Positions 22,780 through 50,900 of a stretch of 64,000 nt of DNA are shown here, piece by piece (position 1 is the first letter of the stretch; every line of letters begins with the position of its first letter). Under the pieces are notes generated by a model. It had not been told where the DNA came from. It saw only the letters and a program-made list of their open reading frames with translations, and made no database searches. A program made the position numbers and the translations under genes. Source of the DNA: Rhodospirillales bacterium (GTDB lineage Bacteria > Pseudomonadota > Alphaproteobacteria > CACIAM-22H2); the NCBI GenBank assembly GCA_947445225.1, contig CANFCX010000001.1:24189-88188 (forward strand), given 5' to 3'.

Positions 22780-22803
22780 GGTATTACTCCCGCTCCGAAA
22801 TCG

Positions 22804-23661
22804 TTACCAGTAGAAGAAAACGGAGAAAACGTGGGTCGTCAGCGCCGCCAAAAGGCCGACCGACAACGGCACGTGGAACATCAGCCAAATTTCCAGGAAA
22901 GCCCGGTATTGCACGTCGCGCCGCGCGCGACCGACAAGGTCGCTCTTGCGGCTCAACAAGGTCAGCAATTTACGCACGGCGACGGCGTCTTCCACCGAGA
23001 CCTTGGTCGCGAGTTGTTTGATCCTGGCCAGCGCGCGCGAAGTCGGGCAATTGGGATCGCGGCCGGAAAGCTGACGCCACACCGACCCGCCGATCTGAGT
23101 ATTGCGTCCGGAATCGAGCACCGCCCGCGTGATCTCGTCGGGCAGTCCCATGGAAACTTCGCGGCTTTCGGTATCGAGCGCGGCGATGCGCGTGAAAATC
23201 TCGGTCAGTGTCAGCCCGCCGCGGTTCTGGGTCATCAAGGCGGGATACCGTTGATAGAAAAACACGCCGAACACGCCCGACAGGATGACCAGCATCATCA
23301 AGGTGTAGGCAAGCGTATGCACGTTCCAGCCGAACTGGAACCCGGTGTGCAGCGTGGCCACGACGATCAGCGCGAGGCCGAGATAGACATGCGCCGATAG
23401 CCAGCCCTGAAGTTTCGTCGGACCCTGGTTGTACCGCCGTTTACGTACGCCGAACCACATCAGCCACAGGATCAAGCCCGCGCCGATCGTGCCCAACACA
23501 TAACCGAGCCACGTGCCGCCATTGGGCGGGTCCAACGGGCTGTGGGCGCCGTAGACGATCGCAGCCGCCAGCGCGCCCAGGACGGCGACCTTCAAATACC
23601 GGAAGTTGCGGTAGACGAGATAGGATTGATGCATCGTCTTTTGGCTGTTGGCCGACCTCAA
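22804..23661 (-). CDS. Polytopic membrane protein with conserved intramembrane histidines (candidate b-type haem/quinol-interacting subunit)
   Basis: 285 aa, five predicted TM helices each with His (SAHVYLG, TLHTGF, NVHTLAY, MFHVPLS, TTHVFSV); TTG start overlapping upstream stop (TTGA). Confidence 0.55.
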   Translation of the reverse strand: MRSANSQKTMHQSYLVYRNFRYLKVAVLGALAAAIVYGAHSPLDPPNGGTWLGYVLGTIGAGLILWLMWFGVRKRRYNQGPTKLQGWLSAHVYLGLALIVVATLHTGFQFGWNVHTLAYTLMMLVILSGVFGVFFYQRYPALMTQNRGGLTLTEIFTRIAALDTESREVSMGLPDEITRAVLDSGRNTQIGGSVWRQLSGRDPNCPTSRALARIKQLATKVSVEDAVAVRKLLTLLSRKSDLVGRARRDVQYRAFLEIWLMFHVPLSVGLLAALTTHVFSVFFYW

Positions 23662-26057
23662 AGACCCCGGTTAGACAGCGAGAAGAATTCCTCGGGGCTG
23701 ACACGAATGGCGGCGCCGGTCGGACAGGCCCGCACGCAGGACGGGCCGCCTTCGATGCCTTTGCACATGTCGCATTTCACCGCCATCTTGCGTTTGTTCG
23801 GGTCTTTTTTCTTGCCGTGGGTGGCTTCCCAATCCTCGCCCGGCCCGTGGCCCAGCCCGAACAACATCCAGGCCAGCAAGCCCGGCTTGGCCGGCGGCTC
23901 CGCCGACATGTGAATGACGTGATAAGGACAATTGCGCTCGCAATTGCCGCAACCGATGCATTTTTCGTCGATGAACACTTCACCATTGGGCGAACGGTGG
24001 ATGGCGTCGGCCGGGCAATCGGACATGCAATGCGGGTGTTCGCAATGCCGGCACGAGGTTGGCACATGGATCGAGGCATAGGTCGGGCCGGCTTCGCGAT
24101 CCAGCCGCGACACCCCGTGATGGGTCTCGGCGCAGGCCTTTTCGCAATTGTCGCACCGCACGCACAGCGATTCGTCGATCAACAGAACGTCGGTCGCCTC
24201 GCCCAAACCTTGGTCGAGCAGGAACTGCATCAGATTCGAATGGTCGGGCCGGCCTTCCATGCGGGCGTTTTCGACGAGCCGTGCCTGGAACCGAGATTCG
24301 ACCTCGACGCGCAACTCGGGCGAGCGATCGAGCAGGCCGCGGAAGGCGCCGCCATCGAGTTTGATGGCCTCCGTCGCCACCGCCGCCCGCACCGTGGCGG
24401 TGCGCGGGCTCTTGGTCAGCAGCGCCATTTCGCCGACATAATGGCCGGCGGGGACATAGGACAAAACCACGTCGCGGCCGCCCAGGTTGCGCGCCACGGT
24501 CACCGACCCGCTGCGGATCAAATAGACGTTGTCGCCGATATCGCCTTCCTTGATCAGCACGTCGCCGGCGCTGAAGGACTGGATCGTGGCCGTGCGCACG
24601 ACATCGACCAGGTCGCGCTTGGAGACCTGCGGCGCTAGATGCGTCTGCACCTGGCGGATCATGGCGGTTTCGTCGAGCACACGTTTAGCCGCGGCGATCG
24701 AACGGGTCAGCTTGATAACCTGCCGGCGCGGGGTCTCGATCAACACGCAATCGGCGCCCGCCACCACCGTCGCCGTGCGCCGGCGGCCGGAGATCAAACC
24801 CATCTCGCCGAAGAATTCGCCGGTCTTCAGCGTCACCTTGATCGCTGGGTTTTCGGCGCTGACCTGGACATCGACCGACCCCGACAGGATCGAATAGAAG
24901 CTGTCGGAATAATCGTTGCGCTTGAAAACGATCTCGCCCTGTTTGGGCACATGGACGTCGCTGTCGAGCAGGAATTCGCGAAGCTGCAGCTTGGTCAACG
25001 AGGAGAACATCGGCACGCGCTGCTGCACGCCCTCCAGGAACTGCGAGACGGTCACCCCTTGCAGCCCCGTGAGTTTTGCCTCGAGCAGCGGCTCGTCCGC
25101 CGGCTTCACCTCATGCCCGAGGATATATTCGACCACCTCGTAGCCCTGGTTCATGCAGTGTTTGATCAGGGGATAACCGGCGAGCGCGCCGATGATGTAC
25201 AGCCCCTTCACGTTCGATTCGTAGCTGTCGCTGACCCCCGGAACCGAGGCCGGATCGGCGTTGGGGAACACGATGCCGCAGGCCTCGACGAATTTGCGCG
25301 GCGGCAGGGCGCCGATACGGGCGATGACCCGGTGGCACTTGACCACCGCCTCGCCCTCCGGCGTTTTCAGGAAAATGGCGCTGGGATCGGTCTCGACCTT
25401 AATGACCTTGGTATTGAAATAACACTGGATGCGGCCTTCCTTGATGGCCGATTCGATCAGCGCGACGTTGCCCGCCTTGGCGCGCGCGAAATCACCCATG
25501 ACGTTGACGACGATGACCTCGTTTTGGGCGGCCAGCGCGATGGCGTTTTCGAGCCCGGCATCACCGGCGCCGATCACAACGATGGTTTCGTCTTTGTATT
25601 CTTCCGGGTCGTCGAGTTGGTACTGGACGTTGGGGCCGGTTTCGCCGGGTACGCCGAGGGTGCGGATATTGCCCTGCAACCCAATGGCGAGCACGACGGC
25701 ATCGGCGGTGAGCGTTTGTTTGTTGGCGAGCGTGATCGTGAAGATCGCGCCTTCCTTCTTGATGCCCGCGACATCGGCGTTTTGGCGCAGGTTGAATTTC
25801 AACTCGCCGGCGCTTTTGTCCCAGGAACCGAGGATGGTTTCGCGGGCGCCTTCCTTGAATTGAAGATCGCTGCGCAGGGGCAGGACCTCCGGCGTCGCCA
25901 TGACGTGTTTTTTCTTCTGATACTTGTAGATCGTATCGGAAAGATGGGTGGTGCGTTCGAGCAGCACATAAGACGCGCCACGCTTGGCCGCGCGTCCCGC
26001 CGCGCTTAATCCGGCCGGGCCCGATCCGACAATCGCGATCGCATAGTGTTCGGCCAT
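23658..26057 (-). CDS. FAD/NAD(P)-binding oxidoreductase fused to two cNMP-binding domains and a C-terminal 4x[4Fe-4S] ferredoxin domain (799 aa)
   Basis: GSGPAG and GAGDAG dinucleotide folds; two CRP-type cNMP signatures (FGEMGLISGRRRTATVVA; VGEMALLTKSPRTATVRA); four Cys clusters CVRCDNCEKAC, CRHCEHPHCMSDCP, CIGCGNCERNCP, CDMCKG..CVRACP. Confidence 0.85.
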   Translation of the reverse strand: MAEHYAIAIVGSGPAGLSAAGRAAKRGASYVLLERTTHLSDTIYKYQKKKHVMATPEVLPLRSDLQFKEGARETILGSWDKSAGELKFNLRQNADVAGIKKEGAIFTITLANKQTLTADAVVLAIGLQGNIRTLGVPGETGPNVQYQLDDPEEYKDETIVVIGAGDAGLENAIALAAQNEVIVVNVMGDFARAKAGNVALIESAIKEGRIQCYFNTKVIKVETDPSAIFLKTPEGEAVVKCHRVIARIGALPPRKFVEACGIVFPNADPASVPGVSDSYESNVKGLYIIGALAGYPLIKHCMNQGYEVVEYILGHEVKPADEPLLEAKLTGLQGVTVSQFLEGVQQRVPMFSSLTKLQLREFLLDSDVHVPKQGEIVFKRNDYSDSFYSILSGSVDVQVSAENPAIKVTLKTGEFFGEMGLISGRRRTATVVAGADCVLIETPRRQVIKLTRSIAAAKRVLDETAMIRQVQTHLAPQVSKRDLVDVVRTATIQSFSAGDVLIKEGDIGDNVYLIRSGSVTVARNLGGRDVVLSYVPAGHYVGEMALLTKSPRTATVRAAVATEAIKLDGGAFRGLLDRSPELRVEVESRFQARLVENARMEGRPDHSNLMQFLLDQGLGEATDVLLIDESLCVRCDNCEKACAETHHGVSRLDREAGPTYASIHVPTSCRHCEHPHCMSDCPADAIHRSPNGEVFIDEKCIGCGNCERNCPYHVIHMSAEPPAKPGLLAWMLFGLGHGPGEDWEATHGKKKDPNKRKMAVKCDMCKGIEGGPSCVRACPTGAAIRVSPEEFFSLSNRGL

Positions 26058-31778: not shown

Positions 31779-32393
31779 CTAGGTCTTCCGGCGGAGCGGG
31801 CGGATGGGGGCGATGTCGGCGGCTTCGGGCTCACCCCAACGTTTGACCAAACCGAGATCGAGATCGAACTGGTCGAGGATGCGGCCAACCGTTTGGTTGA
31901 CGATGTCGTCCACGGTGGCCGGTTTTGCATAAAAAGCCGGCACCGGCGGCATCACCACCGCGCCCATCTCCGTCACTGCCGCCATGCTCCGCAGATGCCC
32001 CAGATGCAGCGGCGTTTCGCGCACGGCCAACACCAGCCGCCGCCTTTCCTTCAGCGTCACGTCGGCGGCCCGGCTCAACAGGCTCGAGGTCACCCCGGAG
32101 GCGATCTCCGACAAAGTGCGGATCGAACAGGGCACGATCGCCATGCCGAGTGTCTTGAACGAGCCGCTGGCCAGCGACGCGCCGATATCCGTGACCGCAT
32201 GGAAAACCGAGGCGAGGTCGCGCACCTGGGCGACCTTCATCGTCGTTTCATGAGCCAGGGTGATTTCGGCGGAGCGCGACATCACCAAATGTGTCTCGAC
32301 ATCGGTCCCGCGCAGCGCTTCCAGCAGCCGAATCCCGTACACCACGCCGGACGCGCCGCTGATGCCGACCACTAATCTTTTGGAAGAAGCCAT
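31779..32393 (-). CDS. ubiX: Flavin prenyltransferase UbiX
   Basis: ATG at 32393 (MASSKRLVVGISGASGVVYGIRLLEAL...), classic UbiX/Pad1 N-terminus. Confidence 0.9.
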   Translation of the reverse strand: MASSKRLVVGISGASGVVYGIRLLEALRGTDVETHLVMSRSAEITLAHETTMKVAQVRDLASVFHAVTDIGASLASGSFKTLGMAIVPCSIRTLSEIASGVTSSLLSRAADVTLKERRRLVLAVRETPLHLGHLRSMAAVTEMGAVVMPPVPAFYAKPATVDDIVNQTVGRILDQFDLDLGLVKRWGEPEAADIAPIRPLRRKT

Positions 32394-32479
32394 GACGCCC
32401 ATCCTACCGGCGGCCCGGCAAAGCGGCAATGCGAAGCGCGGCCTTGCCTCGCCGGTATGAAAGACGCAACCTATCTCCC

Positions 32480-36368: not shown

Positions 36369-36434
36369 GGCCAAAGCATGGGACGCGGAGTCGGGCGCGT
36401 CAATGAGAGCGAAACCAAGGTCGAGGCCGTAACG

Positions 36435-37400
36435 ATGGACGATGTCGCGATTCTGATCTGCGCCCATGGCAGCCGCGATGGCGACGCCATCACCGAACTG
36501 GAGGCGCTGGCCGCCGGCATGAGGCGGCGCCTGCCCCACCGCGAAATCGGCGCGGCCTATCTGGAATTCGCCCGCCCCACCATCCGCGAGGGGCTGGAAG
36601 CGCTGGTCGCGCGCGGCGCCCGCCGCATCCATGCGCTTCCCGCCATGCTGTTCGCCGCCGGCCATGTGAAAAACGACCTGCCTTGGGAGTTGAACAGCTT
36701 CGCCGCCGAGCATAAGGGCGTGGAATTGGCCTATGGCCGCGATCTCGGCATCGACGCCCGTTTGTTGGCGGCGGCGCGCGCCCGCATCGAGGCGGCCGAA
36801 AAAGTGTCGCCGCGCGCGATCGCGCGCAAGGATACCTTGCTGCTGGTCATCGGCCGCGGCACCAACGATCCCGACGCCAACGGCAACATCGCCAAGATCG
36901 CGCGCATGTTGTGGGAAGGCATGGGTTTCGGTTATGCGACGGTCGGCTATAGCGGCGTGGCCCCGCCGCTGACGCCCGACGCCCTGGCTTATGCCCAGCG
37001 GCTCGGCTTCAAGCGGATCGTGGTTTTTCCCTATTTCCTGTTCACCGGGGTGCTGGTGAAGCGGATTTACGCCGCCACCGACGAGGCCGCCGCCGCCCAT
37101 CCCGAAACCGAGATTCTCAAGGCGAGCTATCTCAACGATCACCCCGAGGTACTGGACACCTTCATCGACCATCTGGCCGAAATCGGCCGCGGCGAGAATC
37201 TGATGAATTGCCGGCTGTGCAAATACCGCGAAAGGCTGGTCGGGTACGAAAGTGCCGTGGGAACGCCCCAGGTCGGGCATCATCTCCATGTCCGCGGCAT
37301 TGGCACCGATGCCGATCATCACCACGATCACGATCATGACCACGGCCATGGGCATGGGCATGACCATCACGACCACGGCCACCGGCGCGATTCAAAATAG
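36435..37400 (+). CDS. cbiX: Sirohydrochlorin cobaltochelatase CbiX (long form with His-rich C-terminal tail)
   Basis: MDDVAILICAHGSRDGD...; C-terminal HHHDHDHDHGHGHGHDHHDHGH metal-binding tail. Confidence 0.85.
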   Translation: MDDVAILICAHGSRDGDAITELEALAAGMRRRLPHREIGAAYLEFARPTIREGLEALVARGARRIHALPAMLFAAGHVKNDLPWELNSFAAEHKGVELAYGRDLGIDARLLAAARARIEAAEKVSPRAIARKDTLLLVIGRGTNDPDANGNIAKIARMLWEGMGFGYATVGYSGVAPPLTPDALAYAQRLGFKRIVVFPYFLFTGVLVKRIYAATDEAAAAHPETEILKASYLNDHPEVLDTFIDHLAEIGRGENLMNCRLCKYRERLVGYESAVGTPQVGHHLHVRGIGTDADHHHDHDHDHGHGHGHDHHDHGHRRDSK

Positions 37401-37404
37401 CCGC

Positions 37405-38958
37405 ATGAGGCAGTTCGACGCCTATGTGATGGTCGATTGGAGCGCCGCCTCGAAACCCGTCACCGGAAAAAACAGCATCTGGTATGCGGTCGGGCGGCGC
37501 GGCAAGGCCGGGCCGGACATCGAAACCGTCAATGTCGCGACACGTTCTGCCGCGATCGCGGAAATCAGGCGCCGGCTGATGGATTTCACGGCGCGGAAAC
37601 AATCGGTGTTGGTCGGCTGGGACTTCCCGCACGGTTATCCGCGCGGATTCGCGCGCCGCCTCGGGTTGAGCGGTACACCCTGGCACGAGACCTGGCGTTT
37701 CCTCGCCGAATGCAGCGACCTTCTCGACGGGGACGACAATTCCAATAACCGCTTCGAGATCGCCGCCGCCCTCAACCGCAGCCATTTCAAAGCCGGCTTT
37801 CCGTTTTGGGGCCATCCGGCGGGCCGGGAAATCGTCGGGTTAAAACCCACGAAGACTCCGGAGTTCGGGCCGGGTGAAATCGCGGAAAGGCGACTGATCG
37901 AAACGGCGCCTTATGTCGCCAAGGCGAAATCGGTCTGGCAGCTCGCTTATAACGGCTCCGTCGGCAGCCAAGCGCTTTTGGGCATCCCCTGGGTGCATCG
38001 GTTGCGGCACGATCGCGACCTGGCCCCGCATTCCACGATATGGCCGTTCGAGACCGGGCTGCGCGCCCTGACCCGTCCGGCGCCGGCCGCGCCCTGGATC
38101 GTCCACGCCGAAATCTATCCGTCCCTGTGGTCCTCGCGGATCAAGCCGGGTCCCGGCCAGACCCTGGACGAGGCACAGGTTCGCGCCGTCGTCTCCCTTC
38201 TCGCCGAGCGCGACGAGGCCGGGGCGCTGCCGCGTATGTTCGCCGGCCCCTCCAATTTGAGCGCGACCGAACGGCGGAGCGTGGAACAGGAGGAAGGCTG
38301 GATATTTGGCGTGTCCGGAAAGCTCGACTATGAACGCGATCCCCAAGCCATCTACCGGCGTTCCTTCGCGACCATCGCCGAGGAAACCGATCTCGCGCGC
38401 CTGCCGCGTGACATGGTGGCGATCGCCACCCGCCTTATCCATGCCTGCGGCATGACCGATATCGTCGACGATCTCGCCTGGTCGGCGGACGCCGCGACCG
38501 CCGGGCGCCAAGCGCTCGCGCGCGGAGCCCCGATCCTGGTCGATTCGCGCATGGTCGAAGCCGGCATCATCGCCGCGCGGCTAAAGGGCGGCAACCGCAT
38601 CGTCTGCACATTGCGCGACAAAGGCGTGGACGGGCTCGCGCGCAAACTCGGCACGACACGTTCCGCCGCCGCCGTGGAAAAATGGCGCGCCCGGCTTGCC
38701 GGCGCCGTCGTCGCCATCGGCAACGCGCCCACCGCGCTGTTCCGCCTGCTCGAATTGCTCGACGAAGGGGCCGACCGCCCGGCGGTGATCCTTGGCTTTC
38801 CCGTCGGTTTCGTTGGCGCCGCCGAGGCCAAAGCGGCGCTGGAGGCCGATTCGCGCGGCGTGCCCTTCATTACTTTGCGCGGCCGTCGCGGCGGCAGCGC
38901 CATGGCCGCGGCCGCCGTCAACGCCCTGGCCCGGCCGGAAACCGAGGATGGCGCATGA
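37405..38958 (+). CDS. cobH: Precorrin-8X methylmutase CobH/CbiC with ~330-aa N-terminal domain of unknown function
   Basis: C-terminal ~210 aa (DYERDPQAIYRRSFATIAEETDLARLPRDMVAIATRLIHACGMTD...GFPVGFVGAAEAK) is CobH; N-terminal domain MRQFDAYVMVDWSAASKP... is continuous in frame with no stop. Confidence 0.75.
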   Translation: MRQFDAYVMVDWSAASKPVTGKNSIWYAVGRRGKAGPDIETVNVATRSAAIAEIRRRLMDFTARKQSVLVGWDFPHGYPRGFARRLGLSGTPWHETWRFLAECSDLLDGDDNSNNRFEIAAALNRSHFKAGFPFWGHPAGREIVGLKPTKTPEFGPGEIAERRLIETAPYVAKAKSVWQLAYNGSVGSQALLGIPWVHRLRHDRDLAPHSTIWPFETGLRALTRPAPAAPWIVHAEIYPSLWSSRIKPGPGQTLDEAQVRAVVSLLAERDEAGALPRMFAGPSNLSATERRSVEQEEGWIFGVSGKLDYERDPQAIYRRSFATIAEETDLARLPRDMVAIATRLIHACGMTDIVDDLAWSADAATAGRQALARGAPILVDSRMVEAGIIAARLKGGNRIVCTLRDKGVDGLARKLGTTRSAAAVEKWRARLAGAVVAIGNAPTALFRLLELLDEGADRPAVILGFPVGFVGAAEAKAALEADSRGVPFITLRGRRGGSAMAAAAVNALARPETEDGA

Positions 38959-40160
38959 CACCCTGGCTTTTTGTCGTCGGCGTCGGCGAGGACGGGCTGG
39001 ACGGGCTGCCGTCGTCCCATCGCGCGTTGATCGATTCCGCGGAAGTTCTGGTCGGCGGCGAGCGTCTGCTCGCCATGGTTCCCGCGGGCAAGGCCGAACG
39101 CATCGCCTGGTCCAGGCCGTTTGCCGATTCATTTCCCGCCATCGCCGCCCAGCGCGGGCGCCTGGTCGTCGCGCTCGCCTCGGGCGACCCGCTGTGGTTC
39201 GGCGCCGGCGCCTCCCTGCTCGACCGGTTCACGATCGAGGACATGACGATTCTGCCCACGCCCGGCGCCTTCAGCCTGGCGGCGGCACGCCTGGGCTGGC
39301 CGCTCGCGGGCGTGGAGACGATCAGCCTCGCGGCGCGCCCGCTCGCGCAGCTCCACCTTTTTCTCGCGCCCGGAATCCGCATCCTGGCGCTTTCACAGGA
39401 CGGGACGACACCCGCGCAAGCCGCCGCGCTGTTGCGCGAGGCGGGTTGGGGGCCAAGCCGATTTGTCCTGCTTGAAAGGCTCGGCGGCGAGCGGGAGCGA
39501 ATCGTCGAGGGCACGGCGGAAAATTGGCTGGCCGAACGCTGCAACGTACTCAACACGATCGCCATCGAGTGTCGCCCCGGACCGGGGGCCAAACCACGCT
39601 CGCGCACCGCCGGTTTGCCCGACGACGCCTTCCGCCATGACGGCCAGATCACCAAACAAGAGGTGCGCGCCGCGACGCTCGCCGCGCTCGCGCCGCTGCC
39701 GGGCGCGCTGCTTTGGGACATCGGCGCCGGCTGCGGCTCGATCGGCATCGAATGGTCGCGTGCCGCCCGCGATGCCCAGGCCATCGCCATCGAACGCGAT
39801 GAATCGCGGCGTGCGCTGATCGCCGCCAATGCCGCGGGACTCGGCGTACCCGGCCTGCGGATCGTGGCCGGCGCCGCGCCCGGCGCACTCGCAAAATTGC
39901 CGACGCCGGACGCCGTTTTCATCGGCGGCGGCATCGGCGATCCCGGCCTTGTCGAGGCGGCGTGGGCCGCGCTGAAACCGCGCGGTCGGCTCGTCGCCAA
40001 CGCGGTGACGGTCGCGGGCGAAGCCGCCCTGGCGGCGGCGCGGGCGGCTTACGGCGGCGAGCTGGCGCGACTCCAGGTCTCGCGCGCCGAGAAGCTCGGC
40101 GATCATTTGGCATGGCGGCCCTTGTTGCCGGTCACGCAATGGGCGGCGACGAAGGTCTGA
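38955..40160 (+). CDS. cobL: Precorrin-6Y C5,15-methyltransferase (decarboxylating) CobL/CbiET
   Basis: ATGA overlap with cobH; MTPWLFVVGVGEDGLDGL... tetrapyrrole methylase N-domain and SAM-MTase C-domain (LWDIGAGCGSIGIE). Confidence 0.9.
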   Translation: MTPWLFVVGVGEDGLDGLPSSHRALIDSAEVLVGGERLLAMVPAGKAERIAWSRPFADSFPAIAAQRGRLVVALASGDPLWFGAGASLLDRFTIEDMTILPTPGAFSLAAARLGWPLAGVETISLAARPLAQLHLFLAPGIRILALSQDGTTPAQAAALLREAGWGPSRFVLLERLGGERERIVEGTAENWLAERCNVLNTIAIECRPGPGAKPRSRTAGLPDDAFRHDGQITKQEVRAATLAALAPLPGALLWDIGAGCGSIGIEWSRAARDAQAIAIERDESRRALIAANAAGLGVPGLRIVAGAAPGALAKLPTPDAVFIGGGIGDPGLVEAAWAALKPRGRLVANAVTVAGEAALAAARAAYGGELARLQVSRAEKLGDHLAWRPLLPVTQWAATKV

Positions 40161-40163
40161 GCG

Positions 40164-40871
40164 ATGGGTATCGGCACCCTTTACGGTCTCGGTGTCGGGC
40201 CGGGCGATCCGGAGCTTCTCACGCTCAAGGCCCTGCGCCTGTTGCGCGCCTGCCCGGTGATCGCCTATCCCGCGCCGGAGGAAGGCAACAGTTTCGCGCG
40301 CTCCATCGTTGCGCCCCACCTGATCGGAAACCAGCGGGAGATCGAAATCCGCATGCCGTTAAGCGCCGAGCGATTCCCCGCGGCGGAGGCTTATGACCGC
40401 GGCGCCGAGGCCATCGCGGCCGAGCTGCGCGCGGGAAACGACGTGGCGGTGTTGTGCCAGGGCGACCCGTTTCTCTATGGCTCCTTCCAATATCTGTTCG
40501 CGCGCATGGCCGACAACTTCAAGGTTGTGGTTGTTCCGGGCGTTTCGTCGATCACCGCGTCGGCGGCGGCGCTGCGCATGTCATTGGCGGCCCGCGACGA
40601 TATCGTCACGATTATCCCCGGGACGCTGCCGGAGGACCGGCTGGAAGCGATGCTCGCCGCGGCCGATGCGGCGGCCATTCTCAAACTAGGGCGGCATTTC
40701 GCCAAGGTGCGTACGGTGTTGGACCGGCTTGGCCTCGCCGATCGCGCCCGTTATATCGAACGCGCCACGCTGGACGGCCAGGCCATGACACCGCTCGCCA
40801 GCGTCGATCCGGCGCGGGTTCCCTATTTCTCGATGATCCTCGTGCATAAACGCGGCGCGGCTTTCCGATGA
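40164..40871 (+). CDS. cobI: Precorrin-2 C20-methyltransferase CobI/CbiL
   Basis: MGIGTLYGLGVGPGDPELLTLKALRLL... typical. Confidence 0.9.
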   Translation: MGIGTLYGLGVGPGDPELLTLKALRLLRACPVIAYPAPEEGNSFARSIVAPHLIGNQREIEIRMPLSAERFPAAEAYDRGAEAIAAELRAGNDVAVLCQGDPFLYGSFQYLFARMADNFKVVVVPGVSSITASAAALRMSLAARDDIVTIIPGTLPEDRLEAMLAAADAAAILKLGRHFAKVRTVLDRLGLADRARYIERATLDGQAMTPLASVDPARVPYFSMILVHKRGAAFR

Positions 40872-42685
40872 ACCGGACACGTCTGCCCCAGGGCGCCGCG
40901 CTGGTCGCGTTGACCGCCGACGGCGCGCGGCTCGCCGCACGTCTGCAGCCCGCCTTGCCGGGCGCCCGCATCCATGGGCTCGGTTCCCGCATTGCCGACG
41001 CCGATGAGATTTTCTCCGACACGGCCGAACACCTGCGTTTCCTCTTCGCCGCCGGCCGGCCCATCATCGGTATCTGCGCGGCCGGCATCCTGATCCGCGC
41101 GCTGGCGCCGCTGATCGCCAACAAACGCGCCGAACCGCCGGTCATCGCCGTCGCGGCCGATGGCGGCGCGGTCGTGCCGCTTCTCGGCGGGCATCGCGGC
41201 GCCAACCGGCTCGCCAAATCCATCGCTTCCGCGCTCGGCGGCGTCGCTTCGATCACAACCGCCGGTGATACGGCCCTCGGTTTTGCCCTGGACGACCCGC
41301 CGGCGGGATGGCGCGTCGCCAATGTCGAGGCCGCCAAGGCAATGGCGGCCGCGCTTCTTGCGGGCGACTCCGTGGCGTTGGTGGTGGAGTCCGGCGACGC
41401 CACCTGGCTGCGTGAATCGGGGATCGCCTTCGTGGAAGCCGCCCCGCTCCGCGTGTTGGTCACCGATCGCGCCGTCATCGGCGATGCCTCTACGCTCGTC
41501 CTGCATCCGCCGGTTCTGGCCGTGGGTGTGGGCTGCGAGCGGGATGCCGACCCGGAGGAACTTGCCCGGCTGGTCGATGGCACCTTGGCGGCGCATGGGC
41601 TGTCGCCGCTTGCGGTCGCCTGTGTCGCCAGCATCGACTTGAAGGCCGACGAACCGGCCGTGCAGTCGCTGGCGCGAAGACTGGGCGTACCGGCCAGGTT
41701 CTACCCCGCCGCGCGGCTGGAGGACGAAAAGCCGCGCCTGCGCAACCCGTCCGAAGTCGTGTTCCGCGAAACCGGCTGTCATGGCGTCGCCGAGGGCGCC
41801 GCGCTGGCCGCCGCCGGGAGAGAATCCGTGCTGGTCGTGCCCAAGATCAAATCGGCGCGCGCCACCGGCGCCGTCGCGCGCAGTCCGGCCGACATCGATG
41901 CGACGGCGGTTGGCCGCGGGCGCGGCCGTCTGGCGATAATCGGCATCGGTCCCGGCGCGGCCGCGTTACGTACACCGGAGGCCTCCGCCGCTTTGGCCGA
42001 AGCGACCGATATTGTCGGCTATTCCCTTTACCTGGAACTGCTCGGGTCGGCCGTCACCGGCAAACGCATCCACGAACGGCCATTGGGCGCGGAGACCGAA
42101 CGAACGCAACTCGCGCTCGACCTCGCCGCCGCCGGAGCGACCGTGGCGTTGATTTCATCCGGCGACGCCGGAATCTATGGCTTGGCGAGCCTCGCCTTCG
42201 AATTACTCGACCGCGAGAACCGGGCCGATTGGAATCGCATCGCCATCGCGGTTTTACCGGGGGTTTCCGCGCTCCAGGCGGCGGCCGCCGCGGCCGGGGC
42301 CGTCCTCGGCCATGATTTCGCGGCGATTTCGCTGTCCGATTTGTTGACGCCCTGGCCCGATATCGAGCGGCGGCTGCGGGCCGCGGCCGAGGGCGATTTC
42401 GTCGTCGCCCTTTACAATCCCGCCTCGGCGAAGCGGCAACGCGGGATCGGCGTGGCCCGCGACATCCTGCTGGCCCATCGCGCCCCCGACACGCCTGTCG
42501 TGTTGGCGCGCAATCTGGGCCGCGACGGCCAAGTTGTCGACACCATCAGCTTGGCGGAACTCGGCCCCGACAAGGTCGACATGCTGACCATCGTATTGAT
42601 CGGCTCGACCCAATCGCGAAGAATGCGCCGCGGCCGGGAGGATTGGGTCTACACGCCGCGCGGTTACGAACGGAAATCGACGTAG
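40868..42685 (+). CDS. cobJ: CbiG-like (cobalt-precorrin-5A hydrolase) domain fused to precorrin-3B C17-methyltransferase CobJ/CbiH
   Basis: N-terminal ~340 aa with CbiG_C/CobE-like VGVGCERDADPEEL..; C-terminal RLAIIGIGPGAAALRTPEA... tetrapyrrole methylase. Confidence 0.85.
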   Translation: MNRTRLPQGAALVALTADGARLAARLQPALPGARIHGLGSRIADADEIFSDTAEHLRFLFAAGRPIIGICAAGILIRALAPLIANKRAEPPVIAVAADGGAVVPLLGGHRGANRLAKSIASALGGVASITTAGDTALGFALDDPPAGWRVANVEAAKAMAAALLAGDSVALVVESGDATWLRESGIAFVEAAPLRVLVTDRAVIGDASTLVLHPPVLAVGVGCERDADPEELARLVDGTLAAHGLSPLAVACVASIDLKADEPAVQSLARRLGVPARFYPAARLEDEKPRLRNPSEVVFRETGCHGVAEGAALAAAGRESVLVVPKIKSARATGAVARSPADIDATAVGRGRGRLAIIGIGPGAAALRTPEASAALAEATDIVGYSLYLELLGSAVTGKRIHERPLGAETERTQLALDLAAAGATVALISSGDAGIYGLASLAFELLDRENRADWNRIAIAVLPGVSALQAAAAAAGAVLGHDFAAISLSDLLTPWPDIERRLRAAAEGDFVVALYNPASAKRQRGIGVARDILLAHRAPDTPVVLARNLGRDGQVVDTISLAELGPDKVDMLTIVLIGSTQSRRMRRGREDWVYTPRGYERKST

Positions 42686-44505
42686 AAGGCCTCGATCTGG
42701 CCCTGGCGACCGCGCACCTCCACCATGCCGATGGATTTGACGGGAAGATCGAGCTTCGACGCCTGCCGCGTGACCCCGCTCATCACGACCACGACATTGC
42801 CGGCATTGTCGATGGACTTGCCGAGCTGCTCCAGCCGGTTCGCGGTGTTCACCGTGTCGCCGACGATGGTGTAGTTGATGCGGCCGGGCGCGCCGATATT
42901 GCCGACGACGACGTCACCCGAATGCAGGCCGATGCGAATGCCCAAGGCCCCGCCCTCGCGCCCCATGGCCTCGGCGATGGCCAGCGCGGCGCGGCAGCCA
43001 CGGGCGGCATGGTCTTTCTGTTTCTCGGGCGCGCCCCAAAAGGCCATGACGGCGTCGCCGATGAATTTGTCCACGGTGCCACCCTCGGCCTCGATGCAGG
43101 CGGTGACCAGCCCGAAATGCCGGTTGAGCAGCGCCGCGACTTCCGGCGCCGGGAGTTTTTCCGCCATCGTGGTGAACCCGGCGATGTCGGTGAACATCAC
43201 CGTGACCGTACGTTCCTTCGACGGCATCGCGCCCTTTGCCGCGTCCCATTCGCCATGGCCGACCAATCGTTGCACCAGCTTCCTGGGGACATAGGTCTCG
43301 AACCAACGCAACCCGACGACCATGGCATTGAAGGCCTGGGCCGCGGCGTTCAGCTCCACGAACAGGGTGCGGGGCAACCTTTCGACCGTATCCAGCGACA
43401 GATCGCTCACCCGCCGCGCCGCGATCGAAAGCCGGATCAGCGGCACGGTTAAATATCGGGAATAACCGTAAGCGACCAGCAACGAGACGAGCAGAACCGC
43501 GATCCCGGCGATCGCCGCCCAGCGCAGGCGTGTCAGTTCGTCGGTGATGTCGGTGGCGGCAAAATAGACGCCGACTTCCCAGGGCTTGTCGCTGTAGCGG
43601 TTCAAGACGCGCGACAACATGGCGTATTGAGTGCCACCGGATTCGGCGAGCCGGATGCCGGTCTTTTCGGTGAAGTCGCGGTCGAGCACGTTCAAACTCT
43701 GCGGACGGTCGAATGCCAGGAGAACCGGATCCCCGACCTCCGCGATCGTGGGCAGCAAATTGTCGCCGCGCGGCGGCCGGCGCGTCTGAAGAAGGGGATG
43801 GGCGAGGACCATGTGATGGTCGTAAAGAATGAAAGCCGTGCCCTTGAGGGTGCGCGCGGTGTCGTCGAGAATTTGCGAAAACTGGTCCACCTGGACGGTG
43901 GCCGCCAACAGCCCGACATAATTGCCGCCGATGCGAACCGGGTGGCGAACATTGACCAGCACCTGATCAGCGGTTTCCGGCAGCACGATTTCCGCCCAAT
44001 ACAGTCCCGTCCTATCGCGCGCCACGTCCATGGCGTTGCTGATGACCGGCATCGCGCGCACGTCGATGACGTCGAGCGCGACTCCATTCGGATGGCGAAG
44101 GGCCCGCAGCATCGAATTGTCGGCGCCGATGAGTACGAGCGAACGCACTTCGGGAGTCGCCGACAAGGCGCCGGCAAAGTATTTGCCCAGATCGCCGGTC
44201 TCGAAGGTGATGGTACCGGCCTCGATCTGGCGGGCAAGGTGGGTGAGCTGATTCTCCACCGGCCGCAGATATTGGTCGATCACGCTGACGATCTGCTGGC
44301 TTGCGGCTTCGGATTTGTCGCGCAGCAGGTCGATGGTATTGGTGCGGGCGCTCCAGATTCCGAGCGCCAGGACCGATGCCACGGCAAGGAAGACGAGGCC
44401 GCCGAAACCAAGCACCAAACCGGTGGCGATCTTGATCTCGGCCGACGGGTGCGGCGCCTCGCCCTGTGCGGCCGGGGCGGCGATGGCGGGGGAGTCGCTT
44501 TTCAT
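42664..44505 (-). CDS. Membrane-bound class III adenylate/guanylate cyclase with periplasmic sensor domain and HAMP
   Basis: Two TM segments flanking ~270-aa periplasmic region, HAMP, then cyclase domain (FTDIAGFTTMAE..GDAVMAFWGAP..RIGLHSGDVVVGNIG). Confidence 0.85.
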   Translation of the reverse strand: MKSDSPAIAAPAAQGEAPHPSAEIKIATGLVLGFGGLVFLAVASVLALGIWSARTNTIDLLRDKSEAASQQIVSVIDQYLRPVENQLTHLARQIEAGTITFETGDLGKYFAGALSATPEVRSLVLIGADNSMLRALRHPNGVALDVIDVRAMPVISNAMDVARDRTGLYWAEIVLPETADQVLVNVRHPVRIGGNYVGLLAATVQVDQFSQILDDTARTLKGTAFILYDHHMVLAHPLLQTRRPPRGDNLLPTIAEVGDPVLLAFDRPQSLNVLDRDFTEKTGIRLAESGGTQYAMLSRVLNRYSDKPWEVGVYFAATDITDELTRLRWAAIAGIAVLLVSLLVAYGYSRYLTVPLIRLSIAARRVSDLSLDTVERLPRTLFVELNAAAQAFNAMVVGLRWFETYVPRKLVQRLVGHGEWDAAKGAMPSKERTVTVMFTDIAGFTTMAEKLPAPEVAALLNRHFGLVTACIEAEGGTVDKFIGDAVMAFWGAPEKQKDHAARGCRAALAIAEAMGREGGALGIRIGLHSGDVVVGNIGAPGRINYTIVGDTVNTANRLEQLGKSIDNAGNVVVVMSGVTRQASKLDLPVKSIGMVEVRGRQGQIEAFYVDFRS

Positions 44506-47229: not shown

Positions 47230-48459
47230 TCACCAGGTCATCGCGCCGATACCATTCAGCCAAGCCACGGCCACAGCGATGGACAGCAGCGCGATCGGGA
47301 TGCCCGACCGGGCATGGTCGGCGAAACTCAGGCGAACACCCACCGTCGCCGCTCGCTCCACCACGATCAGATTGGCGATGCTGCCGACCAGCAGAAAATT
47401 GCCGGCGAGCGTCGATAGCAGGCCCAGGCCGTGCAGCGCGCCGCGCGGCAATTCCGGCCACATTTCCAGCAGCATCACGACCGCGGGCACGTTGCCGATC
47501 GTGTTGCTGAGGACCAGGGCCAACGGCGCCATCAAATGCAGGCGGTCGGGCAGCCAATCCTGTTCCGCCAGCATTCCCAGAAAAGCGTCGGGCAGGCCGG
47601 TGGCGGCAAAGGCGTCGTTGACGACGAACAAGGCGGCAAAAAGAACAAGAAGTGGCCAGTCGACGGTCACGAGCATGTCGCGGCTGGCGAAGCGGCGGCT
47701 GAACAGCATCGCCGAGGCAACCAAAAGCGCCGCACTTTCGCGCGGCAGCTCCGTCGCGAACAAGACGAGGAGGACACCAACCCCGAGGCCGGCGCCAAAA
47801 AGCTGCCGCCGATCCATTCTTGGCGAATCCTGAAAATCAATACTCGGACCGCGTGGCGCCAGGGACTCGCGCCATAGGAACCCCACGACGGCATAAACGA
47901 TGGCCATGGAAAGGACGGAAGGCACGACGCAGACCGCCGCGAAGCTCCAAAAATCGAGCGCGCCGACCTGGCCGATCAGGATGTTCTGTGGATTGCCGAT
48001 GAGTGTCGCCGCGGAGCCGGCGTTGCTCGCGCCGGCGAGCGCGATCAAAAAAGGCCGGGGATCCAGGCCGCGGGCACGAACCCCGGCGCAGAGCAGCGGC
48101 GTCATCGCGAAGACAACGACATCGTTGACCAGGATCGCCGACAGACCGCCGCCGACGGCCACGGTCAACGCCAGCAATGTCCGTGGGCTACCCTCGTGCC
48201 GCGCGATCCAGGAAGCGGCCGCGTCGTAAAAGCCGAGTGCCGCAAAGCGCGCCGACAGGACCATCAACCCGAACAGCAGCAAGACGGTCGGGAAGTCGAT
48301 GGCGTCGGGAAGACGGTCGGCGGGCAACACACCCGAAGCGACCAGAATGACCGCCCCGGTCAGCGCGGCGCCGGTGCGATCCAGCCGCAACCCCGGCACC
48401 CGGCCCACCGCCATCACGATATAGACGGCGGCGAAAACCGCGCTGGCTAACCAGGGCAC
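47230..48459 (-). CDS. ArsB/NhaD/DASS-superfamily anion/metal permease (12-TM), first gene of the cbiD-cobK operon
   Basis: 409 aa, highly hydrophobic, internal repeat topology; family assignment from general sequence character only. Confidence 0.65.
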   Translation of the reverse strand: MPWLASAVFAAVYIVMAVGRVPGLRLDRTGAALTGAVILVASGVLPADRLPDAIDFPTVLLLFGLMVLSARFAALGFYDAAASWIARHEGSPRTLLALTVAVGGGLSAILVNDVVVFAMTPLLCAGVRARGLDPRPFLIALAGASNAGSAATLIGNPQNILIGQVGALDFWSFAAVCVVPSVLSMAIVYAVVGFLWRESLAPRGPSIDFQDSPRMDRRQLFGAGLGVGVLLVLFATELPRESAALLVASAMLFSRRFASRDMLVTVDWPLLVLFAALFVVNDAFAATGLPDAFLGMLAEQDWLPDRLHLMAPLALVLSNTIGNVPAVVMLLEMWPELPRGALHGLGLLSTLAGNFLLVGSIANLIVVERAATVGVRLSFADHARSGIPIALLSIAVAVAWLNGIGAMTW

Positions 48460-48495
48460 AGCGCGGCCAGGACCGGCAAAGCCCCGGCGAGAGCC

Positions 48496-50517
48496 TCAGG
48501 CGCCGTGCACCGCCATGGGCTGGGGCGCGGCGGCCATCGGAACCTGGGACCCGGGTTGCACGCGCGGCGCTGCCACCGGCCGGCGAGCTTGGGTAACACG
48601 CTCCTGCGCCGCCTCAAGGATCAGGCGCAGCAGGTCGGCGTAACGCAGCCCGGCGTAACTCGCCATGATGTTGAGCTTGCCGTCCCAGCACCAACCGGGA
48701 TTGGGGTTGACCTCGAGCAGTTTGATCGCGCCGTCGGCATCGGCGCGGAAGTCGAATCGCGCATAGTCGCGACAGCCCAGGCGCTCGAACAGCACGGTCG
48801 AGTAGTCGACCAGGCGGCGCCGCACATCCTCGTCGATCGCCGCCGGCTTGTACTTGATCTGCGTCCAATACGGCGATTCCGGCACCCATTTCGATTCATA
48901 CGAGAGAATCTTGGGCAAATCGGCGTTGAGCCCGCTGAAATCGACCTCGAGCGTCGGCAGCACCTGATAGGACAATCCGGGATTGCCGATGATGCCGATG
49001 CTGTATTCCGCGCCGGTCAGATATTCCTGCACCAGCACCGGGCGCCCCGGCAATTCCTCGCGTAGCTTTTCCAGATAGGTGATCGCTTCTTCCGGCGTCC
49101 ACACCACGGCGTCCTTGGTGATGCCGATGCTGCTGTCGCCGAAACAGGGCTTGATCAGCGCCGGAAAGATCGACGGCAGGTTCGCGGATTGGTCGTCCGG
49201 GTTGACATAGGTTTCGGCCGGGACCGGGAGATCGAGCGATTCGGCGATCGAACGGACCAGCGCCTTGTTGTAACAAAGGCCGAGGCAGCTCGCGCCGGCC
49301 CCGGTATAGGGCACGCCCAGCATTTCGAGCAACGCCGGCACATGCGGCTCGAGGAAGGCATCGTTGTTGAAGCCTTCGTCGCAGAGATTGAGCACGAATT
49401 TGGGCGGGTTGGCTCGAAGCTGGCTGACCATCGCGGTGTGATTGTCGATGAAGTCGAATTTGTAGCCCGGCAATTCGCCCAGGGCCTCGCGCAGGCGCTT
49501 GATGGTCTCGAAGTCTTCCTTGTTGAACTGGCCGCCGCGCTTGACCATGTCGGGCAGGCGCGGATCACCCATGACGACGCTGACCTCCGGGTAGGCGATG
49601 CCACGCACCGCCGTGACCGCGACCTTGCGCGGCGCCTGCGCCGTCAGGAACATACGCGTGGCCATCATACCAAGGTCTTGGTTGCGCCCGGATTCGGTGC
49701 CCACCCAATCGTGGAACCGCAGCGATTCGAAACCGACTCGTTCCAGCAGCTCGCGGATGCGTTCACGCGAATAGAGCCGCTCGGCATAGAACTGATCGGC
49801 GATCACGCCGCGTTCGGCATGCACCACGACTTCGCGCGAAACCAGGCGTTGTTGATCGTTGGCGAGCGAGCGTTCCCGGCAGACGAAGTGGTTCTGGTCG
49901 ATCCATTCCCAGGACCGGCGCTCGAAGTGCGTCCGTAGCCAGTCGCCATCGGCGAGGTCCATGGCCAGCGTCCCGTTGGAGGCCAGCGCCCGTTTCACCG
50001 CCTCCAGCACCGCCACGTCGTCTTCCTCGCGGTCGAAATAGCCGTAGGAATTGCCCATCAGCGTGACGCAGTGGAAGGAATTCTCCGGAACCCGGAATTT
50101 GCGGGCGTCGCCTTCATGGAAGGAGACGTTGAGGCCCAACTGCTTGGCGCGCTTGCGGGCGAGCCGGACCAGATACCGCGAGCGGTCGATGCCGGTGACG
50201 GCGTTGAAACCCCGGCGCGCGAGTTCGATGACGTGGCGACCCTGGCCGCAGCAGAGATCGAGGATTCGATCGTTCGGCTCCAAACCCGAGGACTTGATCA
50301 GCGAATCGATTTCGCGGCCGGTGTTGGTGTCGTTTTCGACGACATCGCCATCTGTTTGGATGTAGAGCGAATTGAACAACGTCCGCCACCAATCGGAGGG
50401 CAGATGGCGTTCGAGATCGGAAACCGGGCCAAGCGTCCGTACCGGTCCCTGCGGCTTGGGCGTACCGTTCCCATTGGGTTTGTGGACGCCGTTGCCGTTG
50501 GACGACTTTTTCGCCAT
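48496..50517 (-). CDS. Class I SAM-dependent methyltransferase fused to ATP-grasp (D-Ala-D-Ala ligase-like) domain
   Basis: ATG at 50517 (MAKKSSNGNG...); MTase motif I ILDLCCGQGRHVIELARRG; C-terminal ATP-grasp (..VLVQEYLTGAEYSIGIIGNPG..LLEVNPNPGW..). Confidence 0.7.
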   Translation of the reverse strand: MAKKSSNGNGVHKPNGNGTPKPQGPVRTLGPVSDLERHLPSDWWRTLFNSLYIQTDGDVVENDTNTGREIDSLIKSSGLEPNDRILDLCCGQGRHVIELARRGFNAVTGIDRSRYLVRLARKRAKQLGLNVSFHEGDARKFRVPENSFHCVTLMGNSYGYFDREEDDVAVLEAVKRALASNGTLAMDLADGDWLRTHFERRSWEWIDQNHFVCRERSLANDQQRLVSREVVVHAERGVIADQFYAERLYSRERIRELLERVGFESLRFHDWVGTESGRNQDLGMMATRMFLTAQAPRKVAVTAVRGIAYPEVSVVMGDPRLPDMVKRGGQFNKEDFETIKRLREALGELPGYKFDFIDNHTAMVSQLRANPPKFVLNLCDEGFNNDAFLEPHVPALLEMLGVPYTGAGASCLGLCYNKALVRSIAESLDLPVPAETYVNPDDQSANLPSIFPALIKPCFGDSSIGITKDAVVWTPEEAITYLEKLREELPGRPVLVQEYLTGAEYSIGIIGNPGLSYQVLPTLEVDFSGLNADLPKILSYESKWVPESPYWTQIKYKPAAIDEDVRRRLVDYSTVLFERLGCRDYARFDFRADADGAIKLLEVNPNPGWCWDGKLNIMASYAGLRYADLLRLILEAAQERVTQARRPVAAPRVQPGSQVPMAAAPQPMAVHGA

Positions 50518-50900
50518 TGCGCGCTCGCGTTTTCGGGTTGATGGGGAAGGAAAACCGGCTTCGCCGGAAAAGACATCGGACGCGCGCCCGCCCAGGCCGG
50601 CTTCGTGCAACGAAGCGGGTGATGAGTCTATGGCCGCCTCCGACCGTAATTTGGCCGGCGGCGGCAGACTACTCCCAGGGTCGGGATCGGGTGATTGACG
50701 AGGCATTCTCGCGCACGTTCGTCGAGCCGCTACTTAACGTCGCGGTCGGACGGCCGTCAAGCGGTTCGGAAACGATTCGAGGCGAGCGACACAGAAAATT
50801 GAAGAGTGCGACCGATGGGTCACGGTGGGCGAGTCGGGCGTGCGTCCAAACGCGGAGATTCGGCCGCCTATGTTTCGCCCAAAAGCCGGTATAGGCTGAG

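Follow-up and report, generated by a model that had tools for sequence, protein, structure and literature searches.

The two-domain cobH gene and its operon

Within a 64,000-nucleotide stretch of a Rhodospirillales bacterium genome (contig CANFCX010000001.1; this whole stretch is referred to below as the window), we analysed a gene in which a precorrin-8X methylmutase (CobH/CbiC) domain of vitamin B12 biosynthesis is preceded by a large additional N-terminal domain. The open reading frame (ORF) extends on the forward strand from ATG 37405 to TGA 38958 and encodes 517 amino acids (aa); its translation confirms that it is uninterrupted, as an earlier note made from the DNA letters alone had stated. 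The frame upstream of this ATG remains open as far as GTG 37252, a candidate start which was discarded: because all homologues begin with M-x-x-FDAY, ATG 37405 is retained as the start. The main features of the locus are as follows.

37405–38958, + strand: complete two-domain gene (predicted RNase-H-fold domain, linker, CobH); 517 codons plus stop, from ORF and translation
37405–38310, + strand: N-terminal domain, aa 1–302, predicted RNase H-like fold family, the 'unknown domain' of PRK14495
38311–38322, + strand: inter-domain linker, approximately aa 303–306, from an alignment of fusion proteins (A3) and a predicted local distance difference test (pLDDT) score of 71 in the 301–310 block
38323–38937, + strand: CobH/CbiC (precorrin-8X / cobalt-precorrin-8 methylmutase) domain, aa 307–511 (PF02570, NF006136)
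36378–37400, + strand: upstream partner cbiX, a cobaltochelatase gene with a His-rich C-terminal tail (PF01903, E 3e-52)
38955–40160, + strand: downstream partner cobL (cbiE/T), the ATG of which overlaps the TGA of the fusion gene

ATG 37405 sits 4 nt past the cbiX stop, and the TGA of the fusion gene overlaps the cobL start as ATGA. This spacing and overlap place the gene in a tightly coupled operon of cbiX, the fusion gene, cobL, cobI, and cbiG-cbiH.

The C-terminal half of the protein matches CobH families over their full length and above curated cut-offs. PF02570 (CbiC) aligns to aa 316–510 (E 2e-69; 233.5 bits, cut-off 22.5; model positions 2–195 of 196), and NF006136 (precorrin-8X methylmutase) to aa 307–511 (312.4 bits, cut-off 276; model positions 3–207 of 209). 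Since these models are only 196 and 209 positions long, about 300 residues of the product are extra, which bears out the earlier claim of an additional N-terminal domain on CobH. The 330 residues allotted to that domain were too many, as it ends around residue 302 (...EEGWIFGV) and is followed by a short linker. His346 (motif RLIHACG; codon CAT 38440–38442), which we take to be CobH His43, the presumably catalytic active-site histidine, is invariant across the 51 fusion proteins aligned in A3. Judged by sequence, this half is a standard CobH, predicted to perform the methyl-migration step (C11 to C12) from precorrin-8 to (hydrogeno)cobyrinate. It thus resembles other CobH/CbiC proteins in its full-length match, its RLIHACG histidine, and its position ahead of cobL and cobI, as is usual for cob operons, whereas typical members are single-domain proteins of ~200–210 aa and the window protein carries ~300 further N-terminal residues of unrelated fold.

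The linkers of the 51 aligned fusions are all in frame and range from ~5 residues in the window protein, the shortest, to ~60 low-complexity residues. An AlphaFold2 (AF2) model of the full-length protein reached a pLDDT of 93.6 and a predicted template modelling score (pTM) of 0.75, compared to a pTM of 0.92 for the N-terminal domain (hereafter N-domain) alone. Judged from these summary scores only, the drop in pTM and the variable linkers suggest two well-folded domains on a flexible tether, with no fixed composite active site; a rigid docking of the N-domain onto CobH is not supported by either. Codon 303 is an internal GTG, 13 nt past a AGGAGGAAGG-like stretch that the conserved EEGW codons provide, and some independent initiation of CobH may occur there, although nothing requires it.

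The fused form is recurrent and authentic

The earlier note had left open whether this architecture is a fusion or a missed frameshift between two genes. A genome-collection scan identified a closest relative, L001 (CAMDDQ010000001.1), with 93% aa and 92.8% nucleotide identity and identical synteny, in which the same 1554-nt frame is present with an identical junction peptide. Nei-Gojobori dN/dS, calculated between this relative and the window for each half separately, came to 0.17 both in the N-terminal and in the CobH part, and the differences were mostly synonymous. The relative was deposited as an 'Asaia bogorensis' metagenome-assembled genome (MAG). Asaia genomes have a lower GC content than the 66% of the window, and this difference, together with multihaem cytochromes and a type II secretion secretin, makes the label doubtful.

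The fusion is also widespread. Across the 80 best genomic loci of the N-domain, to which the N-domain locus counts given here refer, 38 have a cob-cluster setting, and N-domain and CobH form a single ORF in 26 of these. Likewise, N-domain–CobH fusions account for 52 of the 265 family proteins collected, and such fusion proteins have already been deposited as precorrin-8X methylmutase. L075, from the cultured Fulvimarina manganoxydans CGMCC 1.10972, is one locus with the fused form. Separate adjacent genes were found at four loci: CobH lies in a different frame from the N-domain in L007 and L034, an in-frame stop is immediately followed by a GTG-started CobH in L080, and a 600-nt spacer separates the two genes in L052. 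The assemblies behind three further broken frames also show fragmentation of nearby cob genes.

A sequencing or assembly frameshift that artificially joined two genes could be argued from these separate genes at the junction and from the broken frames in the three error-prone assemblies. It is, however, extremely improbable given the identical frame and junction peptide in an independent, 93%-identical assembly that differs mostly at synonymous sites, the presence of the fusion in 26 loci and 52 database proteins, the variable but in-frame linkers, and the fact that both halves match their models over the full length, neither overlapping nor truncated where they meet; we discarded it on the recurrence of the fusion, the linkers of A3, and the frame of L001. 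The comparison of orthologous loci proposed in the earlier note returned both fused and split forms, and its suggestion that a stop codon or separate gene in orthologues would imply an assembly error does not hold, as split and fused forms of this gene pair are both natural. The fused form in the window is authentic, and the fusion is a genuine, vertically inherited two-domain protein.

A large family with a predicted RNase H-like fold

The N-domain is nearly invisible to reference libraries. A single-sequence Pfam scan returned no family at E < 1, and individual scans of 55 family members with E values up to 10 returned nothing either, including PF04250 (DUF429), PF02075, and the RNase H-like clan. 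No match was found in PADLOC or PHROGs, none among PDB sequences (phmmer and profile searches), and none that was significant in a Foldseek comparison with the PDB, a check which the earlier note had proposed. The sole library match is NCBIfam NF011066/PRK14495 (model positions 166–441, E 2e-39), and the other family members tested, from all contexts, matched PRK14495 and nothing else. The window protein is no equivalog of that family, scoring 136 bits (cut-off 596) and lacking the MobB part. The description of the domain as unrecognised is thus accurate for Pfam, PADLOC, PHROGs, and PDB sequences, yet goes too far in that the domain corresponds to the 'unknown domain' of PRK14495. No description of it was found in literature on CobH fusions, on MobB and its unknown domain, on RNase H-like domains with precorrin, or on mobB/moeA fusions. 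Still, the family is large, with more than 4327 clusters at 90% identity and, at 50% identity, 2975 representatives at E ≤ 1e-3, of which 1054 reach E ≤ 1e-30.

Structure comparison of the predicted N-domain aligned ~100–147 of 312 residues, and the fold neighbours were nucleases. The model contains an RNase H-like core, i.e. a mixed β-sheet (β1-β2-β3 hairpins, α1, β4, α, β5) that superposes on known members, with β1 at residues 6–11, β2 at 25–32, β3 at 37–44, and β4 at 68–72, and with residues 210–212 and 232–236 completing the sheet. Between β4 and the last strands (β5) lies a 130-residue insertion that is loop-rich, confidently modelled, and highly conserved. By its predicted structure, the N-terminal half is an undescribed family within the RNase H-like superfamily.

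Conservation was assessed over 355 domain sequences from all contexts. D11, D73, E236, D255, R47, R116, R163, G187, Q189, P214, Q258, E297, and several Trp are each kept in at least 349 of these, and about 30 positions are invariant. Of these, 8 are Trp and 3 are Arg, others form a Gly-rich loop (GSVGSQ), and most lie in the 130-residue insertion. RNase-H-fold nucleases such as RuvC carry metal-binding carboxylates after β1, after β4, and near β5 or the next helix, and four conserved carboxylates of the N-domain occupy these secondary-structure positions in the model, as would be expected of a putative catalytic tetrad:

37435–37437, + strand: codon of D11, putative catalytic carboxylate 1, at the end of β1 (motif VDWS); D in 349/355
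37621–37623, + strand: codon of D73, putative catalytic carboxylate 2, just after β4 (motif GFDFPxGYP); D in 352/355
38110–38112, + strand: codon of E236, putative catalytic carboxylate 3, at the end of β5 (motif AEIYPS); E in 354/355
38167–38169, + strand: codon of D255, putative catalytic carboxylate 4, at the start of helix 254–271 (motif KDAxQV); D in 353/355

A precedent for an RNase-H-fold domain joined to a B12-annotated protein is Rv2228c of M. tuberculosis, in which an RNase HI domain is fused to a CobC-type (alpha-ribazole phosphatase family) domain and the reason for the fusion is similarly unclear. That protein nevertheless differs from the one in the window, with which it shares homology no closer than the superfamily level: its RNase H is of the classical, active type 1, and its partner belongs to the histidine phosphatase family and acts at the nucleotide-loop stage, not on the corrin ring. 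Clade D of the RNase H-like superfamily comprises RuvC, the terminase nuclease, the YqgF domain of Tex/Spt6, and the RuvC domains of Cas9/Cas12, as well as the DUF429/COG4923 predicted nucleases (Majorek et al. 2014, PMC3985635). The N-domain resembles RuvC neither in sequence nor in profile, gave no Pfam match to DUF429, and has a conserved 130-residue insertion. Its fusion partners are also distinct, being cofactor enzymes, whereas those reported for DUF429 are Nudix and RelA/SpoT (PMC3985635).

The family resides in B12 and molybdenum cofactor operons

The gene order CobD(-), CbiX, N-domain, CobH, CobL, CobI, CbiG-CbiH, CobM, CbiJ, CbiD recurs in Stellaceae, Rhodospirillales, Aliidongia, Fulvimarina, and many alphaproteobacterial MAGs, and the CbiX - N-domain - CobH order is kept in ~35 loci. 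CobH is not the only partner. Across 48 multidomain members, the Pfam-recognised partners were only CbiC (16), CbiG_C (3), and TP_methylase/CobL (2), as illustrated by an N-domain–CbiG protein adjoining cobD (P0154), an N-domain–CbiG_C protein followed by a methylase (P0212), and an N-domain–CobL fusion (P0221).

A second home of the family is molybdenum cofactor (Moco) biosynthesis. Roseobacters, among them Ruegeria TM1040 (TM1040_RS04220), Salipiger, Alloyangia, Tritonibacter, and Phaeobacter, encode a homologue within fdhD-mobA-mobB-[N]-moeA operons, and this subfamily comprises 1659 matches, which bear the NCBI context-derived name 'molybdopterin guanine dinucleotide synthesis'. In Salipiger the homologue is fused to MoeA (N-domain at residues 1–300, then MoeA_N, MoCF_biosynth, and MoeA_C), while PRK14495 is a fusion of the N-domain with MobB. 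These proteins belong to the same family as the window's N-domain and keep the same invariant residues, but they are only ~33–35% identical to it and have MobB or MoeA, instead of CobH, as fusion partner. All recognisable fusion partners of the family are hence cofactor enzymes: CobH, CobL, and CbiG for B12, and MoeA and MobB for the molybdenum cofactor. Since the same ~30 residues are invariant in all contexts, one and the same chemistry would be expected in each of them.

Database names follow these contexts. Several standalone copies (P0015, P0016, P0018, P0023, and others) are labelled 'precorrin-8X/cobalt-precorrin-8 methylmutase' or 'CbiG', and others (P0270 among them) 'molybdopterin guanine dinucleotide synthesis', without containing the corresponding domains; these copies are mislabelled because names spread from fusion proteins or from genomic context. 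Two further members (P0136, P0232) lie on short metagenomic contigs with no usable context. Among IMG/VR viral contigs, the N-domain was found at only 2 loci, and a phage origin was discarded on this count; with no PADLOC or PHROGs match either, the family does not behave as an anti-phage or phage family.

The N-domain is accessory to B12 synthesis and co-inherited with CobH

To obtain a sample unbiased towards carriers of the N-domain, metagenome contigs were searched with the CobH domain alone and the 80 closest CobH loci retained. The N-domain occurs in only 3 of these (L156, L168, L171), while CbiX-CobH-CobL synteny without it is seen in 10, including the locus of the closest CobH (L103, 69% identity) and L142 (CobQ, CobD(-), CbiX, CobH, CobL); the remaining loci have a different layout with no CbiX in view. 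In a neighbour-joining tree of CobH, which is only a rough guide, CbiX-type clusters with and without the domain are intermixed. The pathway can thus dispense with the domain, which is evidently accessory to it. In addition, the enzymes encoded in the window cover every chemical step of the CbiX-type route (CbiX, CobI/CbiL, CbiG-CbiH, CobM/CbiF, CbiD, CbiJ, CobL, CobH, and CobB). A missing B12 step was discarded as the main explanation on the basis of the 10 domain-free syntenic clusters. The B12-pathway function suggested as one option in the earlier note is conjectural: independent fusions to CobH, CobL, and CbiG speak for a link to the pathway, whereas these syntenic clusters, and the contexts unrelated to B12 in which the invariant residues are the same, speak against it.

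Across 32 carrier loci, pairwise distances of the N-domain and of CobH were strongly correlated (Mantel r 0.75, 0/2000 permutations), indicating that the domain is co-inherited with the operon and repeatedly lost, with no independent hopping. This bears on the possibility that it is an independently mobile selfish gene, akin to a homing endonuclease, which repeatedly invaded the cbiX|cobH junction. Its patchy presence among syntenic clusters, nuclease-like fold, and relatives on mobile elements would all suit such a gene. Yet a homing-type element should show a phylogeny decoupled from that of its host operon, which is not what the Mantel test returned, and losses account for the patchiness as well as gains would. 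Tight translational coupling, the lack of noticeable flanking repeats, a dN/dS of 0.17, and the invariance of the putative catalytic and ~30 other residues make this scenario highly unlikely as well, and independent mobility was discarded by the Mantel test.

Possible roles of the N-domain

We consider the protein to be a genuine two-domain protein in which the N-domain is an auxiliary, metal-dependent phosphoesterase found in cofactor operons, and not a missing B12 step, with a probability of roughly 0.6. The N-domain gene has long resided between cbiX and cobH in the CbiX-type (early cobalt insertion) cob operons of Alphaproteobacteria; most carriers have it joined to the gene downstream, while in some it is still separate. 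The N-domain would be an active enzyme through the carboxylates D11, D73, E236, and D255, since this tetrad, together with three invariant Arg and the Gly-rich loop (GSVGSQ), points to two-metal-ion hydrolysis or transfer of a phosphoester. It would act on a substrate that bears phosphate, be it a nucleic acid or a small molecule resembling a nucleotide, and fusion would cause its activity to be produced 1:1 with, and beside, corrin-ring enzymes. Most likely, it assists cofactor biosynthesis operons as an auxiliary factor that is useful under some conditions. The fold neighbours speak for a nucleic-acid substrate, as do the contexts of some members in mobile elements or beside a ligase; a small-molecule or cofactor role instead draws support from the fusions being only to cofactor enzymes in two pathways, from the pocket-like insertion, from the very high conservation, and from the rarity in phages.

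Several observations weigh against this reading. Some concern the enzyme itself, whose activity, metal use, and ligand are putative: the tetrad was placed by the secondary structure of the model and not by superposition, alignment of the family (A1) with E. coli RuvC in hhalign, using a manually entered RuvC sequence, gave a probability of only 0.14, and Pfam DUF429 (PF04250) is not matched. Net charge and isoelectric point (pI) range from acidic to basic across members, so that a surface suited to binding nucleic acids is not a consistent feature; these values were set aside as uninformative on this point. Others concern genomic context. Standalone copies of ~297 aa (~44–46% identical) follow an NADPH-oxidoreductase gene in Caulobacter, Phenylobacterium, and Hyphomonas, and the 8 kb around them lack cob genes, which weakens the case for a cofactor-specific role. 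In two Acidobacteria (L087, 6537–7445; L097, 7001–7903), the gene lies between the hydantoinase/oxoprolinase genes hyuA and hyuB, its start overlapping the hyuA stop, and in L097 an IS200-type transposase is inserted after it. Three members (L083, 8001–9494; L084, 5424–6614; L098, 7001–7942), which carry extra unrecognised C-terminal domains (~190 aa) or a CxxC...CxxC ribbon, are located in a conjugative element with a type IV secretion system (T4SS), next to an ATP-dependent DNA ligase, and within an island of restriction, helicase, and integrase genes. Finally, mean identity between contexts is 45–50%, nearly equal to the 53% within the cob group.

The conjugative-element, ligase, and restriction-island contexts fit a generic nucleic-acid nuclease riding in operons, i.e. 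a RuvC/terminase-like endonuclease of DNA or RNA that would serve in housekeeping, repair, mRNA processing, or conflict, lodged between genes of several operons and fused through stop-codon loss without functional coupling to CobH. The nuclease fold neighbours, the invariant D-D-E-D pattern, the zinc ribbons of some members, and the flat identity across contexts are all consistent with it, as is the gene's consistent position between two operon genes (cbiX|cobH, mobB|moeA, hyuA|hyuB), where it is present or absent among otherwise syntenic clusters. Such a nuclease would not, however, readily explain why recognised fusion partners are exclusively cofactor enzymes, nor the long co-evolution with CobH and the purifying selection on the fused form. 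The variable surface charge, a conservation unusually high for a conflict-related nuclease, and the scarcity on phage contigs together with the lack of PADLOC and PHROGs matches also speak against it, and we regard it as unlikely, if still credible.

Alternatively, the N-domain could be a dedicated component of the cofactor pathways, its site repurposed from nucleic acids to small molecules in the synthesis of metallo-cofactors. Labile intermediates of corrin and molybdopterin might be carried or stabilized by it, or it might clear an inhibitory by-product that arises in both pathways; speculative candidates for the latter are S-adenosylhomocysteine (SAH) or 5'-deoxyadenosine from S-adenosylmethionine (SAM)-dependent steps, and pyrophosphate-linked nucleotides. 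Independent fusions to three B12 ring enzymes and two Moco enzymes, conserved operon positions in both pathways, and co-inheritance with CobH argue for such a component, and the ~30 invariant positions, mostly in the confidently modelled insertion, look like a defined pocket; rarity in phage contigs (2 loci) and the absence of a defence-library match are likewise consistent. A comparison is offered by CobE/CbiG_C-type accessory proteins, which are also encoded in cob clusters, variably present, and non-catalytic for the pathway. CobE has been proposed as a carrier of corrin-ring intermediates, and the N-domain is itself fused to CbiG_C, yet these proteins are unrelated to it in fold and sequence, and a carrier role of the N-domain would be hypothetical. 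A dedicated component is nonetheless doubtful, as the domain is dispensable in syntenic cob clusters, all CbiX-type steps already have enzymes in the cluster, and members in non-cofactor contexts keep the same invariant residues, including those of Caulobacter, whose model species C. crescentus does not synthesize B12 de novo (PMC6538847). Only tentatively would we propose the N-domain as an unrecognised accessory enzyme or intermediate-handling protein common to the B12 corrin-ring and bis-molybdopterin guanine dinucleotide (bis-MGD) cofactor pathways, whose RNase-H-fold carboxylate site would act on a small molecule, for example a labile intermediate or an inhibitory by-product, in place of nucleic acid.

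Other features of the cob cluster and the window

The cbiX gene (36378–37400, + strand) encodes a long His/Asp-rich C-terminal tail (...HHHDHDHDHGHGHGHDHHDHGH). Its likely true start is the ATG at ~36435 (MDDVAIL...), in which case only ~55 nt separate it from the divergent cobD/cbiB start. Further downstream (40868–42685, + strand), a single 605-aa protein joins a CbiG that has N, mid, and C domains to CbiH/CobJ. This CbiG-CbiH fusion, together with CbiX and CbiD, marks the early-cobalt-insertion ('anaerobic-type') route, here in a 66% GC, alphaproteobacterium-like genome. No Rfam family, cobalamin riboswitch included, reached gathering score in the 64 kb window, despite a cob cluster of ~22 kb.

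A dCache-HAMP adenylate/guanylate cyclase gene (42664–44505, - strand) sits in opposite orientation mid-cluster between cbiG-cbiH and cobM, and a CitMHS-family transporter with a 736-aa methyltransferase/ATP-grasp (D-Ala-D-Ala-ligase-like) fusion (47230–50706, - strand) lies between cbiD and a cobA-like methylase. A PF02441 flavoprotein gene (31779–32429, - strand) is the divergent neighbour of the cobO adenosyltransferase gene; this family includes CoaC, UbiX, and EpiD. Elsewhere in the window (21073–26057, - strand), an FHA-domain multihaem cytochrome c (568 aa) adjoins a 799-aa multidomain protein composed of a pyridine-nucleotide-disulfide oxidoreductase, two cyclic nucleotide (cNMP)-binding domains, and 4Fe-4S ferredoxin domains.

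Implications for cofactor biosynthesis

B12 and molybdenum cofactor biosynthesis are among the best-mapped cofactor pathways, and a single conserved domain family resides in both kinds of operon. This family has thousands of members, ~30 invariant residues, and independent fusions to five pathway enzymes (CobH, CobL, CbiG, MoeA, and MobB), but only context-derived names, and it is without a Pfam entry or solved structure. For annotation, the consequence is that standalone copies are mislabelled 'precorrin-8X methylmutase' or 'CbiG' through name propagation from fusions. If the domain were a nuclease, its stable residence in metabolic operons would need explaining. Should it turn out to act on intermediates or by-products of cofactor synthesis, it would represent an auxiliary function relevant to engineering B12 production via the oxygen-tolerant CbiX route, and a small-molecule role shared by both pathways would make it a new functional class for the RNase H fold and a missing auxiliary player in each. 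Taken together, these results provide a well-supported lead tying one uncharacterised enzyme family to two major cofactor pathways, alongside evidence that it is dispensable in B12 operons.

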